DNA from: a virus
Direction: 5' to 3' (one strand)
DNA length: 64,000 nucleotides
Virus genome (UHGV): UHGV-1353844
Under the pieces are notes generated by a model. That model was not told where the DNA came from, searched no databases, and saw only the letters and a list, made by a program, of their open reading frames with translations. Positions 32,882-64,000 of this stretch are shown here, one piece after another. Within the stretch, counting starts at the first letter, position 1. The number at the start of each line of letters is the position of its first letter. Both the position numbers and the translations under genes were made by a program.

Positions 32882-33688
32882 TTACATCACTTGCATTTTG
32901 TTCACGACCGCAAGTTCTTCATCAGCAATACCGCTTTTCGATGAGATCGTAAAACGTTTATCGTTGATGACTTCTACGGCGTCACGAATATGCAGACCTT
33001 TCTCTTCAGTAATCGGGAGGATAGAATCGTTATCCTGCGGGCCGATTAACTGACAAGTAAACGGTACGTACGCGTTAAACGTGATATACGGACCTAGTTG
33101 CATAACCGGGAACACTTCGTTGAAGTTGCTTGCCATTCCGCTGTCAGACGAAATTACTGCGTAACGAACAACAGCACGTAACGCAATGGTGTTTTCAGGA
33201 TCGCGTGCTTCGCCAATCATCGTGAAACGGAAAGCGTTGAACTCATAATCGTCAGATTCAGCAAAGTGCGTCGGAAGCAAACGTTCGATATACTTCGGAT
33301 ACGTTTCTGGTTCTCCTGGAACTACCGCATTCGCCAACTTCTGTGCGTAGAAATAACAATACGCGAAACCGTACTGCGCTTCCAGTGCTCCCGTCACTAC
33401 CGCAGTCGTGATTGCGTGCAAGAACAACAAATTACCCAAAGAACCTTTTTCTTCAATCGGTAATAAGCGATGGCCCTGTACTCCGTCAACCGTGTAGATA
33501 ACAGAGACCGTTTTGTCAGCAGAAGACGCCATGACGAAATCTAGCTGACAATGCTCGCCGCCTGGAATAACCTTTAAGCAACGTTCTAACAGTTTGGACG
33601 GTTTAGCGAAATGTTCTTTTTCGTACTCGTCAATCTGCATTAACGTTTGACCAGACATGCGGAAAGTAAGTAAATTGCTCATTAACAA
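32882..33688 (-). CDS. hypothetical protein (268 aa)
   Basis: ORF track; terminator 32850-32877 downstream. Confidence 0.6.
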   Translation of the reverse strand: MLMSNLLTFRMSGQTLMQIDEYEKEHFAKPSKLLERCLKVIPGGEHCQLDFVMASSADKTVSVIYTVDGVQGHRLLPIEEKGSLGNLLFLHAITTAVVTGALEAQYGFAYCYFYAQKLANAVVPGEPETYPKYIERLLPTHFAESDDYEFNAFRFTMIGEARDPENTIALRAVVRYAVISSDSGMASNFNEVFPVMQLGPYITFNAYVPFTCQLIGPQDNDSILPITEEKGLHIRDAVEVINDKRFTISSKSGIADEELAVVNKMQVM

Positions 33689-33714
33689 ATCCTTTAGGTT
33701 GCTGTCGACATAAC

Positions 33715-35034
33715 TTACGTTGTGGATGTAAAATTTTCATTAGTCAGCCACAACGTCAACTGACTAATGGTATTAAACCGTGGTGAAGCCGCTGAACCAC
33801 CATCAATTGCACCTTGGAAAACTTCTGCAACTAATGTTCCGTAACGCGTGTATACACCATAGTTATTCGCATAAATGTATTTTACTGCCATCCCAGGACG
33901 GAGTAAGCCGTACGTTGATGCGTTCCAGGTTGTTGCTGTTAGCGTCCCTTTCGCCGCCGCCAACTTAGACCGTTGCGGTTTATCTGTGTCCGAGAAGTGT
34001 TGGTTCGGGTCTATTGGTGCGTTAACCACCCCACCTGGATATTGCGTCGGATCAGCCGCTGACACGAACGAATCAGACGTTGTAGCAGAAACATCACCTG
34101 ACGAGAACGAGGACGCACGACCATCCAAAGCACGGATAGACCCCACACGATAACCGGTACCTTGGTTTAGTGCTAAGGAGTCTTTATCTTCGAAGGTGTG
34201 GACATCACCCCCACATATCAGGTAAATCACGTCACCGTCAATGTGGCAGGTCTTATTCAGATACGCTGCTTTCTCTTTCGGTAGGTTTATAATCACCAGC
34301 TTATTCTTCGCTGATGAAAACTTCTTAGAGTCCCAAGGTTGGAAAATATACCAACGGTGTTTGTAGAGGAACACCCCCAGCCCTTGGCTATAAACCCCGT
34401 AACGATTCTGAAGGTAATCGAACACAGACAGGAAACTTTCCGAGTCAGGAATCAAAATATCCCGATACGGTTGTTGCTCCTCTTCCTCGTATTCCACGCC
34501 CACCAACTGACCTTCTGGCGCATCACCAGTAGGTAACGTATCTGCCAGCAGCGCACGAACAACACTAAGACCATCTGTCTCGTGATAAATCCCACCGACT
34601 TGACGGCAACGTAAGAACCACATTGACTCGTCCATCAGTTCCAGGGTGACGACCGCTAACGCTTTCTGGTCAGACTCACCTAAGAACATCGTGGGCGATT
34701 CCATATCAGGATCGTGGTTGTTTACGACGATACCCCGATAGTCGAGTTTCGCAACGGTTTTCTTGTTCATTGTCCGCATTAGAATTTTCACGGACAAATC
34801 CCCGTCTGCGGAAGACGTTAACACACGCTGTTGGCTTAACGGTATCATCACGGTAAGATGGGTGATAGTCGTTAAGTCCTGTGCGAAGTTACTGGCATGG
34901 ATTATCGACAACGTTTTAAATACGCTGATAACTGTGCCACGTACCGTAATGATAGGTACGTATTCGATGGCCGGTAATCCCGCCGCTTGTGCGATATGCA
35001 CGTTTGCTATGTTCTGTAACCGACCAAACGACAT
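33715..35034 (-). CDS. hypothetical protein (439 aa)
   Basis: ORF track; operon with downstream genes. Confidence 0.6.
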   Translation of the reverse strand: MSFGRLQNIANVHIAQAAGLPAIEYVPIITVRGTVISVFKTLSIIHASNFAQDLTTITHLTVMIPLSQQRVLTSSADGDLSVKILMRTMNKKTVAKLDYRGIVVNNHDPDMESPTMFLGESDQKALAVVTLELMDESMWFLRCRQVGGIYHETDGLSVVRALLADTLPTGDAPEGQLVGVEYEEEEQQPYRDILIPDSESFLSVFDYLQNRYGVYSQGLGVFLYKHRWYIFQPWDSKKFSSAKNKLVIINLPKEKAAYLNKTCHIDGDVIYLICGGDVHTFEDKDSLALNQGTGYRVGSIRALDGRASSFSSGDVSATTSDSFVSAADPTQYPGGVVNAPIDPNQHFSDTDKPQRSKLAAAKGTLTATTWNASTYGLLRPGMAVKYIYANNYGVYTRYGTLVAEVFQGAIDGGSAASPRFNTISQLTLWLTNENFTSTT

Positions 35035-35573
35035 TACAGTATACCTCCCCTTTTACGATAAATCGTTTCTATACGTCGCATTATCGTATCGTTAAAACGG
35101 TGTTGCTGCGTTTCTAAACGCACCTCTCCAAATAACGCTTGTACCGACGTCGCCATCGTCACTTCCGGTTTCTTAAAGTAACCGTATCGGTTAGCAACGG
35201 GAAAAAGTTTACATGCTAAGGCGTTGAACTGGCGGAGTCCTTCTATCGGTACTTTACGCGTCGTCAGATGAGGTTCTTGCATGTAATGTAACCAATCTGC
35301 CAGGTGTTCCATGATATACCCGTAAACGATAATACCGTCATTCGGATCGTGGACATCTAACGCAGCACCGGTTTCTGCGTACACCGCCACTTCAAATGGC
35401 CGCATATACACCGTTTTCTTGTTCAACAAAATCGCTCGTGCTTTCTTTTCGTCATCCGGCAAGAACAATCCGTGTTCTTGCGACATATACTGGGTAATGG
35501 TTGTCCATTCAGGAACCCGCCATGCTACCCACTTATGGAACAGCATAAACGCTGCACTACGTTTCACTGACAC
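35034..35573 (-). CDS. hypothetical protein (179 aa)
   Basis: ORF track; start/stop overlaps with neighbours. Confidence 0.55.
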   Translation of the reverse strand: MSVKRSAAFMLFHKWVAWRVPEWTTITQYMSQEHGLFLPDDEKKARAILLNKKTVYMRPFEVAVYAETGAALDVHDPNDGIIVYGYIMEHLADWLHYMQEPHLTTRKVPIEGLRQFNALACKLFPVANRYGYFKKPEVTMATSVQALFGEVRLETQQHRFNDTIMRRIETIYRKRGGIL

Positions 35574-59221: not shown

Positions 59222-61180
59222 CTAGCCAGTAACGCCGAATTGATCCCTCATAAACCGCTGAATCTCGAACACCACTCGAGATAGCTCGAAAAAAACGCGG
59301 TCCGGGGAAATCGTTACGATACCACGATACACACCTTCTTTCTCGCCTTCATCGGCTTTACCACATGCTGGGCAACGTTGACCCATATACCCGAACACCG
59401 CCAGACGGCTGCGGTCGTTGTACGTCGCAATAGCACCTTCGAAGTTAGCCACGTATTTACGATCGGACGACAGTTCTTCCAGCATCTGGACGATCTTATC
59501 GTAATCTTTCTCTACGATAGGTTCTTCGTGGGATTCTTCACCGTCGTAGATTTCTTCCATAACGGTGATAGATTCAACCATGTGCGCATAACGGGTTAGA
59601 CGACGTGCCTCAGCGGTTAAGCGTAAATGGTCTTCACGCTCACGTTCTGTCCCCTTCTCTGCCAACGCAGAGGTCGTGGCCGCGTTGGTTTCTTCAATCC
59701 AACGTTCAGTGTTGTCGAAGAATTTACCTAATGTAGAACGACCGAACTTAACGATAATACCGTCTTGTTCGAAAATCGCTGATGGGTCTTTGATGTGTTC
59801 TTCAACGAACTTACGCTGGTCAGCACGGGTGATCGTCGCGTCGTCTTTACCGCGTTGAAGTGCCCACAGATTACGCTGAATGTCCGTATACAAAGAAGTC
59901 CCCATACGGATACAACGTGCCAGGTTCAGACGAACGTCTTCCTGATGACCACAACCTTCGTGACCACAAATCAGCGTCCACGGTAAACCGCCCGGGAACT
60001 TCGCCTGCATAACACCGATTAACAGTAACCAGTAGTCTGCAATGTCGATGGTATCCATCAGTACGGTCTTCATGTCGTTACCTTCGCAGTCTAAGCTACA
60101 ATCGGTAACAAACCGTAAAGCAAATTCGATCATGTGGCTTAGGTACACACCAGAAGATGCAGAGAGCATCAGACCGTAAGTCTGCATCCCAATCTTCGCG
60201 GTTTCTAACGCCAGTTCAATATCGAAGTCACAAATCTCGCGTTCCAGCGGTGCACGGAAGCCGACGAAGATACCCGTAGCAGGTAACCATACCCAGTTAG
60301 GAATACCAGATTTACGACGACGGCGCAGGGCTGCAATTGCACCTGTCTGCTGGTTGAGACGGGTACTAATCAGACCTACCGGTTTATTCATCCCCGGCAA
60401 CTGTACTCGCTGTTCCCATGCTGTGTCGTCACGCGACAGGGCCACATCGAACGCTTGCAGGTTATTCTGCAAACGCGGTGGCGTCATGTTCAGAGCACGC
60501 CGCAGACGCTCGTACAAATCTCGCTGTTCTTCGGACTTGAACAACAGACGTCCGTCTTTGCTCGTTGGGATACTTGAGAAGAATTTCTTCAGATCGTTTC
60601 CAACCAGGTTCGGGTCCTGGCAAAGACCGATAAGCGTACGGAAGCTGGCCATAATCGCCGCTTCTGAATCCTCTTCCATTTCCGAGAACTCTTCGTGAAC
60701 GGGCTGATCGCCGAAGTTGATACGATCGGTAGAAGCTTTCTCTTTTACTGCGGGAGTCGCTTCTGGTTCGTGATCCGCCGCAGGTGCATGAGGCTCAGGA
60801 GACGGTGGAACATATTCTTCCCGCGTTTTCTCCGCTACCAGGACAGGTTCCGGTTTACGTTCTTCAACGACCACTTCTTTACGCTCTACAACTTCAGCAA
60901 TGACAGGATGCCCAGTCAGTTCGGTCTGTAGAGATTCAGGAAGGGGTTCTTCTTCGAACGTAGGCGGTTGAAGAATAGGTTCTTCTTTCACCACGTTCAG
61001 TCCTTTGTACGCTTCTTCAGCTTCTGCAAAGGACAGTTGTGGGTTGGCACGTTTAATGGCCATAATCCCATCGTCCGCTGACATAGTGCTGTAGTCGAGC
61101 TCAGGGATGTGAACCTGTACAGGTTCCGTCTGTAGACGACGGCGTCCATTACCAGGACGTTGGTCTAATGAATCAGACAT
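59222..61180 (-). CDS. large hypothetical protein (652 aa)
   Basis: ORF track; acidic N-terminal half; Cys clusters CGHEGCGH and CPACGK. Confidence 0.6.
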   Translation of the reverse strand: MSDSLDQRPGNGRRRLQTEPVQVHIPELDYSTMSADDGIMAIKRANPQLSFAEAEEAYKGLNVVKEEPILQPPTFEEEPLPESLQTELTGHPVIAEVVERKEVVVEERKPEPVLVAEKTREEYVPPSPEPHAPAADHEPEATPAVKEKASTDRINFGDQPVHEEFSEMEEDSEAAIMASFRTLIGLCQDPNLVGNDLKKFFSSIPTSKDGRLLFKSEEQRDLYERLRRALNMTPPRLQNNLQAFDVALSRDDTAWEQRVQLPGMNKPVGLISTRLNQQTGAIAALRRRRKSGIPNWVWLPATGIFVGFRAPLEREICDFDIELALETAKIGMQTYGLMLSASSGVYLSHMIEFALRFVTDCSLDCEGNDMKTVLMDTIDIADYWLLLIGVMQAKFPGGLPWTLICGHEGCGHQEDVRLNLARCIRMGTSLYTDIQRNLWALQRGKDDATITRADQRKFVEEHIKDPSAIFEQDGIIVKFGRSTLGKFFDNTERWIEETNAATTSALAEKGTEREREDHLRLTAEARRLTRYAHMVESITVMEEIYDGEESHEEPIVEKDYDKIVQMLEELSSDRKYVANFEGAIATYNDRSRLAVFGYMGQRCPACGKADEGEKEGVYRGIVTISPDRVFFELSRVVFEIQRFMRDQFGVTG

Positions 61181-61182
61181 CT

Positions 61183-61755
61183 TTATACCTCGGTAACGAC
61201 TTCAGTGTCGGGTTGTTTTACTGCGGCTTCAGCTTGTTGAAGCAGTTCGTAGGCTTCTGCGAAGGTGTGACCCTGGTGCATAGCACGTTTTACAAAATCA
61301 GCGCGGCCGTTATACAGCGACAGGATTTCAATGGCAGCGCCCTGGATATCTTTGCCCAGCCACACAGCTTCGGTCTCTAACGTGGTCACGTTCATGCTTT
61401 CCACGCTAAACTCGTCTTTCACAGACGCCCAGCTGTTGTTTTCCAGCATGGTTTTTGCATTGGTTGCAACCTTATCGATCTCAATAAGTTTTGCACCCAG
61501 TTTTTCTTTCCCTTCTGCCATCAGGCCAACAAACGCAGCTTTGGCTTCGTCCAACGCTTTAATAGCAAAGGCTTTGTATTCTGGCTCCTCCAGAGCTTCC
61601 AGGACTTCGCGTTCTTTGTCGATACGCTCCGCCAGAATCTTCATCTGTTCTTCAAAGATAACCAGTAGTTTATACACTGATTTCACGCTATCGCGAAGTT
61701 CTTTTTTCGCCAGAGCACGTGGGTTATAAGCGGGTTTCTTCTTACGACGAGACAT
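61183..61755 (-). CDS. hypothetical helical protein (190 aa)
   Basis: ORF track; terminator 61784-61804 upstream of start. Confidence 0.55.
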   Translation of the reverse strand: MSRRKKKPAYNPRALAKKELRDSVKSVYKLLVIFEEQMKILAERIDKEREVLEALEEPEYKAFAIKALDEAKAAFVGLMAEGKEKLGAKLIEIDKVATNAKTMLENNSWASVKDEFSVESMNVTTLETEAVWLGKDIQGAAIEILSLYNGRADFVKRAMHQGHTFAEAYELLQQAEAAVKQPDTEVVTEV

Positions 61756-61783: not shown

Positions 61784-61804
61784 GGGTGTACACAATATAC
61801 ACCC
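61784..61804 (-). terminator. intrinsic terminator
   Basis: GGGTGTA-cacaata-TACACCC preceded by AAAAAAAGAAA. Confidence 0.5.
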
Positions 61805-61816
61805 GTTCTGTACTTT

Positions 61817-62200
61817 TTAATTGCTATCGTGAGGAACGGCTACCCAACTGTGCCATTTCTCAGAGTATAGTCGATAAGCCACCTTCGGGTTTTCATCGAT
61901 ATTGCCCGCAGGGTTTTCAGACCACAGCACCCAGCTGTAAAGCTCGTAGGACGAGGTATTGCGGATACTGGAGTTACGCGTAATGTAATAACATTTACCA
62001 CGTTGGAAAATCTGCATACCGGCGAAGTGTTCCGTTACCATATAGTAGTGGAACGCCACGGACATCGTTGGGTCGGTACACAGTTTATCGACGACGTTTT
62101 CGACGTCTGGGTATGCCTTTAAAACCTTTTCGAGAAAACTTGCTAAGTTCAGCCCGGCATACGGTGCTGTTGGCTCGGTCGGCTGCGGCGGTAGTAACAT
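61817..62200 (-). CDS. hypothetical protein (127 aa)
   Basis: ORF track; AAGGA RBS 5-6 nt upstream of ATG at 62200; overlaps helicase 3' end by 116 nt. Confidence 0.5.
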   Translation of the reverse strand: MLLPPQPTEPTAPYAGLNLASFLEKVLKAYPDVENVVDKLCTDPTMSVAFHYYMVTEHFAGMQIFQRGKCYYITRNSSIRNTSSYELYSWVLWSENPAGNIDENPKVAYRLYSEKWHSWVAVPHDSN

Positions 62201-63794
62201 TGGTTTTCCTTACAACATACGGTGAAGAGGCTATCTTAAACGACAACACAGAATCACTCAGCGACTTTTGACGCGCATTCAAGTAATTACAGTGTTTCCC
62301 TATCGAGAGTGAATGGAATAACCACACAACGGGATCGAGTTCACCCCAATCGTTGTGAAGTATCTTACGCGGTCGACCGGCCATCTGACGGTTTAACTGT
62401 TGGTCTTCCACAGGCGTTGTGATGTACATGTGGACCAACCCCGGTTTGTCAACCGCAGTGCCTGCTTTCCCTGGTGTTGAAATCGAGAAATCCGCTTGAA
62501 TAAAGTCGTCATACGAATCCCCCGCGTTGTATTTCGCAACCATCAGCGCGTGGAACTTATCAGACTGTGCCAGTTTCTCTCGCACGTACTCTGTAAAGAA
62601 CTCACACATCGCAACGGTTGCAAACAACACCAACACTTTCTGACCAGGTTGGTAACTCGCCAGATACGTTCGCTCGATGACGTCCCACACCATATCCGCG
62701 TAAGATAAGTGCATGTTCTCACTTATTAACTTACCTTCGAATAGCTTGTGGTTATACGGCGTCATCTTATTCGCCCACCACGCAAACCGTTTATTCTCAA
62801 TGCTGTAGTACAACGCTTTAACGTGTACAGCAGGAATAATCGGAATGAATATACGTGACTCTTGTGGGAAACGCTCTCGATACCGTTCGGCTAAAAACGC
62901 TTTTGATTCACCCGGCTGTAACGTCGCAGACATCTCAACAGACGGTGGTGGGTTGAGCATTATTCCTGCCATGTACACCAGATGGAAATGCTCATGCACC
63001 TCATCCATTGACAAAAACCCAACGCCTAAGGTGTTGTAGAAATCATCAATGTTCACTGGGTTAGTTGCGGCAGTGTTAATGTACTCTTTAAGGAATCGTT
63101 GCAACGTTACCGTCGAGATAATGATAACCTTAATCCCACGTTTGTCTAATTCGCCTGATTCCCCCATCTCTAACGCTTCGTAGATAGCCTGAACGCCTTG
63201 GATAACCAAAACATCATCTTTCGACTCACGTAAGCCCGTTGGGTCTTCAGTTAAATCAAACAACCATTTTGAGATGTACGTCGGACGGTGAATCAGTAGC
63301 GTCCTGACACCCTTACGTACCATTACTTTCATGTTCGTTTTCGACTTACCCATCCCTGTACCAATTTCAAAGATGGTTTGAAAACGATTTGGTTCGCAAG
63401 CCGTTTCAACCACAGCATTCTGGTAAAAGAAACGTGATTTCTCATCGTCCTCCACCATCTTAAAGCCGTAGTTTTCAAACTTACACCGATAAGGTGTTCC
63501 CTGCGTTAAGTAATGCTCGTAAAGCTTATACTCAATGCCAAATTCGGTGGCCGTACGATTAATAATAATGCGTAAACGCTCAGAAAAGTTCCTGTGGAAG
63601 ATAAACGAGCGGAGAGAAGGTATATGCGCGTAATACGGATCGCCACGTTCAGTGAATATACGACCGTAATGCTTGCCCATCTTAGGAGCGTGCATATGTT
63701 CTTCTGCCCACTTAAGTATCGCCGACTCTATCTGTCGGCACGGGACTTCAACCCTCACCCCCATGCTGGTAAAGGTCATGTGGAATTCGTACAT
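62085..63794 (-). CDS. SF2 DExH-box helicase with poly-basic C-terminal tail
   Basis: Walker A GTGMGKSKT, motif II MDEVHE, motif III SAT, motif VI RQMAGRPRK; C-terminus GIPRRRKRRR; strong AGAGGGGAG RBS. Confidence 0.7.
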   Translation of the reverse strand: MYEFHMTFTSMGVRVEVPCRQIESAILKWAEEHMHAPKMGKHYGRIFTERGDPYYAHIPSLRSFIFHRNFSERLRIIINRTATEFGIEYKLYEHYLTQGTPYRCKFENYGFKMVEDDEKSRFFYQNAVVETACEPNRFQTIFEIGTGMGKSKTNMKVMVRKGVRTLLIHRPTYISKWLFDLTEDPTGLRESKDDVLVIQGVQAIYEALEMGESGELDKRGIKVIIISTVTLQRFLKEYINTAATNPVNIDDFYNTLGVGFLSMDEVHEHFHLVYMAGIMLNPPPSVEMSATLQPGESKAFLAERYRERFPQESRIFIPIIPAVHVKALYYSIENKRFAWWANKMTPYNHKLFEGKLISENMHLSYADMVWDVIERTYLASYQPGQKVLVLFATVAMCEFFTEYVREKLAQSDKFHALMVAKYNAGDSYDDFIQADFSISTPGKAGTAVDKPGLVHMYITTPVEDQQLNRQMAGRPRKILHNDWGELDPVVWLFHSLSIGKHCNYLNARQKSLSDSVLSFKIASSPYVVRKTNVTTAAADRANSTVCRAELSKFSRKGFKGIPRRRKRRR

Positions 63795-63814
63795 GCTCCC
63801 CTCTTACAAAAAAA

Positions 63815-63832
63815 GAGGGGCGCAGGCCCCTC
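63815..63832 (-). terminator. intrinsic terminator
   Basis: GAGGGGC-gcag-GCCCCTC preceded by AAAAAAA; overlaps RBS of helicase gene. Confidence 0.55.
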
Positions 63833-63836
63833 TCGT

Positions 63837-64000
63837 TTACTCAATAATCGTTGCCGCGACAGAATTGTCGTACAACGAAGCAGGACGTTTACGTGACGTA
63901 TAGAAACGTACGTTGTCCAAGTTCTTCTGTTGTCCCTCAAACAGCAACATCGGAATCGCAGAACGCATCGCAATCAGCGTATTGTGATCTTCGAAGCGTT
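63837..64000 (-). CDS. partial CDS (C-terminal ~53 aa; gene continues beyond window)
   Basis: Hand-translated open frame ending ...SVAATIIE* with stop at 63837-63839; terminator 63815-63832 downstream. Confidence 0.4.
   Translation of the reverse strand, partial: RFEDHNTLIAMRSAIPMLLFEGQQKNLDNVRFYTSRKRPASLYDNSVAATIIE

Follow-up and report, generated by a model that had tools for sequence, protein, structure and literature searches.

Evidence for same-strand dual coding between an XPB-like helicase gene and its downstream neighbour in an SPN3US-like jumbo phage

The UHGV virus genome UHGV-1353844, analysed here as one stretch of 64,000 nucleotides (nt; 'the window', whose numbering is used for all positions), carries on its minus strand, where all features of the locus lie, a predicted superfamily 2 (SF2) helicase gene and, downstream of it, a gene of 127 amino acids (aa) for which we use the working name D. 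The end of the helicase frame and the start of the D frame share 116 nt (Table 1), and we consider it very probable that both frames are truly coding and that selection acts on each of them. The helicase C-terminus reads ...SKFSRKGFKGIPRRRKRRR (...AELSKFSRKGFKGIPRRRKRRR) and closes with GIPRRRKRRR*, the TAA stop lying at 62087..62085. Coordinates and sequence are exactly those of the original prediction, made from the letters of the window, which had pointed to the basic end, to the length of the overlap and to a ribosome-binding site before the D ATG at 62200; this site is the Shine-Dalgarno (SD) sequence TAAGGA, whose TAA doubles as the stop closing the D frame upstream. As to the register, position 1 of a D codon is position 2 of a helicase codon, the helicase frame being -1 relative to D. 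Thus, each D wobble base opens the next helicase codon, and the wobble position of the helicase falls on the second position of D codons.

Table 1. Features of the helicase/D locus, in positions of the 64,000-nt window
Feature	Position	Strand	Description
Helicase coding sequence	62085..63794	-	569 aa; folded core residues 1 to ~531, tail 532-569; SPN3US gp36 ortholog
Gene D coding sequence	61817..62200	-	127 aa; PHROG 9835; SPN3US gp37 ortholog; ATG 62200..62198
Dual-coding stretch	62085..62200	-	116 nt; helicase residues 532-569 + stop, D residues 1-38 + 2 nt in the +1 frame
D Shine-Dalgarno TAAGGA	62207..62212	-	six nt before the D ATG; inside helicase codons V528-R529-K530 (GTA AGG AAA)
Tail, linker part NVTTAAADRANSTVCRAE	62148..62201	-	helicase residues 532-549, over D codons 1-19; Ser/Ala/Thr-rich, variable
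Tail, basic module LSKFSRKGFKGIPRRRKRRR	62088..62147	-	helicase residues 550-569, over D codons 19-38 (helix 1 + part of helix 2)
In-frame internal ATG (D M46)	62063..62065	-	19 nt past the helicase stop; yields an 82-aa product
Terminator-like hairpin + T-run	63813..63834	-	between the RNA polymerase beta'-like gene (stop at 63837) and the helicase ATG
Terminator-like hairpin + T-run	61784..61804	-	directly past the D stop

The placement of the upstream gene among the SF2 helicases, also part of the original prediction, was borne out. In a comparison of 17 homologs reaching down to 26% identity, G147, G149 and K150 of the Walker A motif GTGMGKSKT are invariant, with T151 nearly so, and the same invariance is seen for motif II, DEVH (D264, E265, H267), and for Q470, R474 and R476 of motif VI. 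The protein matches PHROG 16 'DNA helicase' (E=6e-51, residues 7-522). Searches of Pfam-A gave no match at E<=0.01 for any of four local proteins, the helicase included; PF04851 (ResIII) is carried only by a distant homolog, P0125, and a sequence search of the PDB with the helicase returned XPB II at E=0.11 only. No curated Pfam helicase domain is thus recognised in the protein, whose family is too divergent for sequence profiles. The AlphaFold model of the helicase (predicted local distance difference test, pLDDT, 86.8) has two tandem RecA-like domains, and a structure search with it returned 489 PDB chains at E<=1e-3, the best 50 listed all being SF2 proteins. S. tokodaii XPB II and Ssl2/XPB within TFIIH occupy ranks 1-4 and 6-13 of the Foldseek list (E=2.5e-13 to 2.6e-11), with T4 UvsW and Snf2-type ATPases ranking after them; TM-scores to XPB/Ssl2 are modest (0.26-0.50), which probably reflects domain orientation. 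Judged by its motifs and its modelled fold, the protein is a predicted XPB/Rad25-like SF2 helicase/translocase. The modelled fold closes with a strand at residues 518-528 and the core ends at SPYVVRK (residues 524-530). Residues 533-569 have pLDDT values below 50 and the tail is predicted to be disordered, so that the overlapped segment, starting at residue 532, corresponds precisely to the disordered appendix.

Many helicase orthologs are larger, at about 910 aa, and contain an in-frame intein of about 340 aa with LAGLIDADG/Hom_end domains (PF14528, PF05203, PF05204), among them P0056, P0071 and P0082, those of phages EC001, Lh1B, JN03, SPLA3 and SPLA5c, and that of locus L009. The copy in the window is intein-free.

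Megablast of the region against phage records gave no match, so that protein-level searches were needed to place the phage; contigs near-identical to the window were found in metagenomes (e.g. SKEP01000003.1). By tblastn, the helicase is 72-75% identical to its counterparts in Salmonella phage SPN3US and in the Erwinia phages Asesino and phiEaH2; for D, identity over the full length is 64-74% in 64 phage records. The partial open reading frame upstream shares 72% identity with the C-terminal end of SPN3US gp35, which carries the annotation of an RNA polymerase (RNAP) beta' subunit, and the gene past D matches SPN3US gp38. On protein similarity, the window is assigned to an SPN3US-like jumbo phage.

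The overlap itself is already present in the GenBank annotations of SPN3US and its relatives. SPN3US gp36 (33403..35109) and gp37 (34997..35380) overlap by an annotated 113 nt, so that a full-length gp36 of 568 aa is predicted to end in ...SRRRRRR and gp37 to begin with (M)LTPPRPAEPLPPYIGMTLASFLENILK. For Asesino gp53/gp54 the annotated overlap is only 83 nt because a later ATG was chosen; an upstream ATG giving 113 nt is also present. Within the literature searched, we found no paper discussing the overlap or the tail. About 36 distinct sequences, with helicase identity as low as 42-46%, have the overlap at 113 or 116 nt (131 nt in one of them, L089), which is the outcome of the ortholog alignment that the original prediction had proposed as a check. 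The Ser/Ala/Thr-rich segment and the basic end are present among about 120 homologs down to about 37-46% identity.

Gene D matches PHROG 9835 almost end to end (E=1.7e-60, residues 8-125 on profile positions 2-119 of 120), and its model (pLDDT 75.6) consists of a Pro-rich stretch at residues 1-18, helices at 19-29, 33-42 and 46-56 and then a beta-sheet, the first two helices being modelled at pLDDT 82-88. The D model had no fold match in the PDB at E<=0.001, BFVD gave one uncharacterised homolog only, and a scan of genome contigs with the D alignment gave no match. The first 38 residues of D are conserved even where the helicase has no tail and there is no overlap, and the invariant residues L23, A29, Y30 and P31 are also kept in the tail-less L015, L016 and L035. 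In every relative examined, the first start codon past the upstream stop is at the same place (the GTG start of L017 being an inferred one), and GTAAGGAAA or an AGGAG-type site before the D start is kept in all relatives, tail-less ones included. Furthermore, SPN3US gp37, listed at 127 aa, was detected by mass spectrometry (MS) in virion preparations, with 6 spectra and without a peptide listing (PMC5105663). The same study did not find gp37 in particles without the virion RNAP (vRNAP) subunit gp241 or in tailless particles (PMC5105663, Table 5), which hints that D could be associated with the particle at low copy number and could need the virion RNAP to be incorporated.

If the tail frame is in use, it should leave its mark on the D codons beneath it. 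To look at this, we took 24 D sequences of less than 97% nt identity and scored codon differences at amino-acid-identical columns, normalising by pair and by amino acid with the non-overlapping part of D; pairs are not independent, and significance was assessed across columns. Over D codons 20-38 the ratio of observed to expected synonymous differences is 0.66, compared with 1.02 outside the overlap (Mann-Whitney p=1.9e-7), and the dip ends where the helicase stops, while D codons 2-19, at 0.94, are like the non-overlapping part (p=0.15). Freezing is strongest at A20 (0.01), L23 (0.11) and N35 (0.02), where the D wobble bases open the helicase codons for K552, R555 and one Arg in the terminal run. 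On the side of the helicase protein, the last six tail positions are 71-96% Lys or Arg (K/R) across 24 representatives and residues -20 to -38 are variable. The basic module is the doubly constrained segment, the linker part being apparently under little constraint in the helicase frame.

The basic composition of the tail exceeds what the D protein sequence would impose by itself. When the D protein was held fixed and synonymous codons were redrawn from the usage of the respective phage, about 4±1.5 K/R were expected in the last 22 tail residues, and the actual count is 9-12 (P<=0.001 for most of the 19 sequences taken as representatives); the tail in the window has 11, against 4.25±1.57 expected. 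In 6-76% of the same draws (P=0.06-0.76), no stop ahead of the observed one interrupts the helicase frame, and because this is not significant per genome we dropped frame openness as evidence of selection. Tail-less relatives serve as a natural control: over the first 40 codons of D, the equivalent frame holds 4, 3 and 1 stops in L016, L015 and L035, respectively, and only 4-6 K/R. In the deep-branching L087 and L088, the helicase has a 60-70-aa K/R/N-rich tail encoded in its own DNA, and the D homolog, recognised by modest hidden Markov model (HMM) scores of 55 and 42 bits together with synteny, starts 18 and 47 nt past the helicase stop. In these lineages, a basic tail is thus maintained without help from D codons. 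The register also indicates how D can spell such a tail: its acidic and Val codons (GAN, GTN) are read as NGA and NGT in the helicase frame, and its conserved AYPxVE(D/N)V gives xGT and xGA codons, which are read as Arg where a C or an A stands at the D wobble position before them. The choice of one of these two bases thus yields Arg in the helicase and leaves D unchanged.

An alternative that deserves a close look is that the tail is neutral read-through after a lost stop, its basic character being a by-product of acidic D codons, with GAN read as NGA. Given the D protein sequence, the frame does stay open often enough, AYPxVED necessarily produces xGA and xGT codons (R, G, C, S or stop), no constraint is seen on the first 18 residues of the tail, the tail is predicted to be disordered and some viable relatives do without it. 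Read-through of this kind is nevertheless at odds with the K/R excess over randomised D codons and with the freezing of those D-synonymous sites that decide between K/R and other residues. The stop, moreover, is kept within one codon in all lineages but L089, with a probability of 2-17% per genome of meeting the same stop; the equivalent frame decays, by stops and loss of K/R, where the helicase does not use it; and basic tails exist without any overlap. We consider neutral read-through unlikely. That the synonymous suppression reflects an element in the mRNA, i.e. a structure or regulatory site, and not a second protein frame has to be entertained, since synonymous constraint alone is silent on what is constrained. 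RNAalifold on 12 divergent sequences gave -1.6 kcal/mol with 4 pairs and almost no covariation, and the window's own sequence folds no more stably than its shuffled versions (z=+1.22); each frozen base falls on the first position of a Lys/Arg codon, and an excess of K/R is a protein-level property. An RNA element is very improbable on these grounds.

The original prediction had also raised the possibility of a mis-set boundary, which would have D start at the ATG of M46, giving the 82-aa product and no overlap. Some automatic annotations indeed contain this form (P0005, P0006), several metagenome gene callers skip D altogether, and most long same-strand overlaps annotated in prokaryotes are errors (PMC2478687). 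We tried M46 as the true start and rejected it: the residue is Leu, Ile or Val in most relatives, residues 1-45 are conserved, and a start there would delete L23, A29, Y30 and P31, residues invariant even in relatives without overlap, along with two confidently modelled helices. The PHROG 9835 match spans residues 8-125, and SD and ATG are conserved at the upstream site. This reading falls away almost entirely, and dual coding, the other reading that had been offered, is what the conservation of the D N-terminus with and without overlap, the synonymous suppression, the K/R excess and the stops in tail-less relatives speak for. Annotated long overlaps commonly stem from frameshifts that extend a 3' end (PMC2478687), and we also considered a frameshift here, either one from sequencing or assembly or a programmed one making a helicase-D fusion. 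Sequencing error is rejected because the arrangement, with the same frame relation, recurs in dozens of independent isolates and metagenome assemblies. For a programmed event, we saw no slippery heptamer or +1 shift site at the junction, a segment that is itself variable, and D has its own SD and ATG and is a separate gene in tail-less relatives; either form of frameshift is hardly credible.

The picture that we favour is one in which ribosomes translating the helicase would read through the D initiation region and terminate 116 nt inside D, with D being initiated independently from its own TAAGGA-N6-ATG embedded in the helicase V-R-K codons. Coupling through short overlaps (ATGA or TAATG type) does not describe this junction, with the helicase stop 116 nt downstream of the D ATG, and coupling of the reinitiation type over that distance is unlikely. 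The product would be a disordered tail composed of an ~18-aa Ser/Ala/Thr linker that is free to vary, followed by an ~20-aa basic module ending in RRRKRRR. The tail frame would have been laid over the older D frame, whose wobble positions then came to serve the coding of Lys and Arg. Other SF2 enzymes, DEAD-box proteins for example, carry disordered Arg/Lys-rich C-tails past the second RecA-like domain, which are thought to tether the core non-specifically to nucleic acid. By analogy, the basic tail might hold a translocase that works with the phage RNAP to DNA, to RNA or to an acidic partner by electrostatic attraction and independently of sequence, and such a tether could help the RNAP-associated enzyme to load or to stay on its substrate. 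The likeness to tailed DEAD-box proteins is compositional only, this helicase being XPB-like (DEVH), and as a specific function the nucleic-acid tether is put forward tentatively, as somewhat less than an even chance; the tail may instead be a localisation or partner-binding signal. The explanation as a whole, a genuine conserved same-strand dual-coding region that arose by overprinting and carries a nucleic-acid tether tail, we hold to be probable.

Several points weigh against this explanation. The helicase tail is a predicted product, and tryptic MS would hardly detect a sequence so rich in Arg; no constraint shows in the evolution of its first half, and the openness of the frame is not improbable in any single genome. 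The tail appears to be dispensable in some backgrounds, since it has apparently been lost at least twice in viable lineages (P0110; P0111/P0114). The tether function is an analogy drawn from general SF2 knowledge, the D homology in L087 and L088 rests on the modest HMM scores and synteny given above, and the number of gains and losses of the tail is uncertain because the tree from which they were counted is a quick one in which at least one sequence, P0119, is misplaced.

As to how the arrangement arose, distant homologs from IMG/VR jumbo-phage contigs (25-34% identity) end at the SPYVVRK-equivalent, tail and detectable D both being absent, so that the tail is derived. D appears with the SPN3US-like clade, whose earliest-branching member seen, L035, is tail-less, and by sequence comparison tail and overlap are specific to that clade. 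The tail-less junctions differ among themselves: in L015 the helicase stops 9 nt before D, L016 has an ATGA-type junction and L035 has no overlap. Comparing the L016 junction, AAA TGA / ATG A, with AAT GTT / ATG TT in the window reveals a register shift of one nucleotide, and gain or loss of the tail thus needs only a 1-nt insertion or deletion. In a quick neighbour-joining (NJ) tree of the helicase core, all tailed forms fall in one clade that includes two nested tail-less lineages (P0110; P0111/P0114), suggesting one gain and two losses of the tail or, alternatively, several gains. The position of P0119 in this tree (intein-bearing, on a long branch, its tail cut back by hmmalign) is artefactual and was disregarded. 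With the confidence that such a tree allows, we infer that the N-terminal coding frame of D is the older and the tail frame the newer. Relatives preserve all three states, i.e. no tail, overlapping tail and tail in its own DNA. It is conceivable, if rather speculative, that overprinting in a giant double-stranded DNA (dsDNA) phage, where compaction cannot be the driver, gave rise de novo to a functional module in the form of the basic tail, and that the helicase/D junction works as a one-nucleotide switch by which the tail is gained or lost.

The surroundings of the pair are of interest for its expression. The two terminator-like hairpins flanking the helicase and D suggest that the pair is transcribed as a discrete unit of two genes, set off from the RNAP subunit gene on one side and from the gp38-like gene on the other. 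A hairpin scan found 2 versus 3.3 expected in shuffles, and because the count is thus no higher than in shuffled sequence, the suggestion leans on where the hairpins are placed. Downstream of D lie two genes on the minus strand, 61183..61755 and 59222..61180, matching PHROG 8045 (E=1.3e-53) and PHROG 8054 (E=1.8e-269), respectively, both without annotated function. The 190-aa protein past D begins with MSRRKKKPAYNPR, a conserved basic terminus that is identical in SPN3US gp38.

Existing annotations treat the pair unevenly. D is called at 127 aa in SPN3US and Stratton, at 117 aa in Asesino and at 82 aa in P0005 and P0006 (PGAP-like); at L017, L018, L084 and L089 it is called variably or not at all, and several metagenome assemblies skip it. 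It appears that the callers disagree because of the long overlap. In records OR413581.1 and OR413585.1 (Salmonella phages SPLA3 and SPLA5c), the helicase ortholog is labelled 'terminase large subunit', almost certainly a misannotation. In Salmonella phages SPFM7, SPFM15, SPFM1, SPFM12 and SPFM14 (P0009, P0010, P0124, P0126, P0127), 'hypothetical proteins' look like D or helicase sequence in blocks of about 20 aa in reversed order, suggesting that the nucleotide records contain scrambled or reversed sequence lines, which would make this a database artefact.

We believe that the locus matters in more than one respect. On a practical matter, annotation rules forbidding long same-strand overlaps would truncate a real protein here. 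The locus also offers a clean natural series for a C-terminal extension arising by overprinting, with acidic and Val codons turned into Arg codons and steered by wobble choice, and it flags a conserved, selected basic tail on an RNAP-associated XPB-like helicase of the transcription machinery of SPN3US-like nucleus-forming phages. If the tail does couple the translocase to the phage RNAP, to nucleic acid or to the phage nucleus, the pair would be a rare tractable model of a new peptide that was created and then 'un-overlapped'.

Among known systems, the closest are the SPN3US gp36/gp37 pair and the other Seoulvirus/Erskinevirus-like pairs (Asesino gp53/gp54, phiEaH2, CR5 and Kwan among others), with the same genes in the same order past two RNAP subunit genes and identities of 72-75% for the helicase and 69-74% for D; the phage of the window has no megablast-level relative in the phage collection. 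A Rad25-related SF2 helicase has been reported to track the RNAP subunits of phiKZ-like phages, to be encoded beside them and, it was suggested, to act with RNAP (PMC7824862). The helicase studied here resembles this group-1 (phiKZ-like) helicase of Iyer et al. 2021 (PMC7824862) in its SF2 motifs, its XPB/Ssl2 structural relatives and its position adjoining RNAP beta/beta' genes, an RNAP-adjacent gene order that is common to the window, SPN3US, Asesino and metagenome loci. It differs from the distant members of that type mentioned above in having the basic tail and D.

Viruses offer well-known cases of overprinting and dual coding (PMC8227390, PMC6195259), and overprinted products typically contain residues of high codon degeneracy such as Arg, Ser and Ala (PMC6195259). 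The pair shares with such genes a younger frame over an older one, a young product that is predicted to be disordered and rich in Arg, Ser and Ala, and suppressed synonymous variation in the old frame. Unlike in these, the new frame is a 38-residue C-terminal extension of an existing enzyme and not a new protein, and the host genome is that of a dsDNA phage of ~225-240 kb, under weak compaction pressure. These two aspects, the giant dsDNA phage and the extension of an existing enzyme, are unusual, as is the survival of tail-less, overlapping and non-overlapping states. In prokaryotic annotation, same-strand overlaps of more than 60 bp have been reported as uniformly artefactual, the longest accepted one in cellular prokaryotes being holD/rimI, at up to 56 bp (Palleja et al. 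2008, PMC2478687). Like holD/rimI, the helicase and D overlap co-directionally, C-terminus on N-terminus, and the overlap is conserved among relatives; it is twice as long, and the pair is a well-supported exception to that finding.

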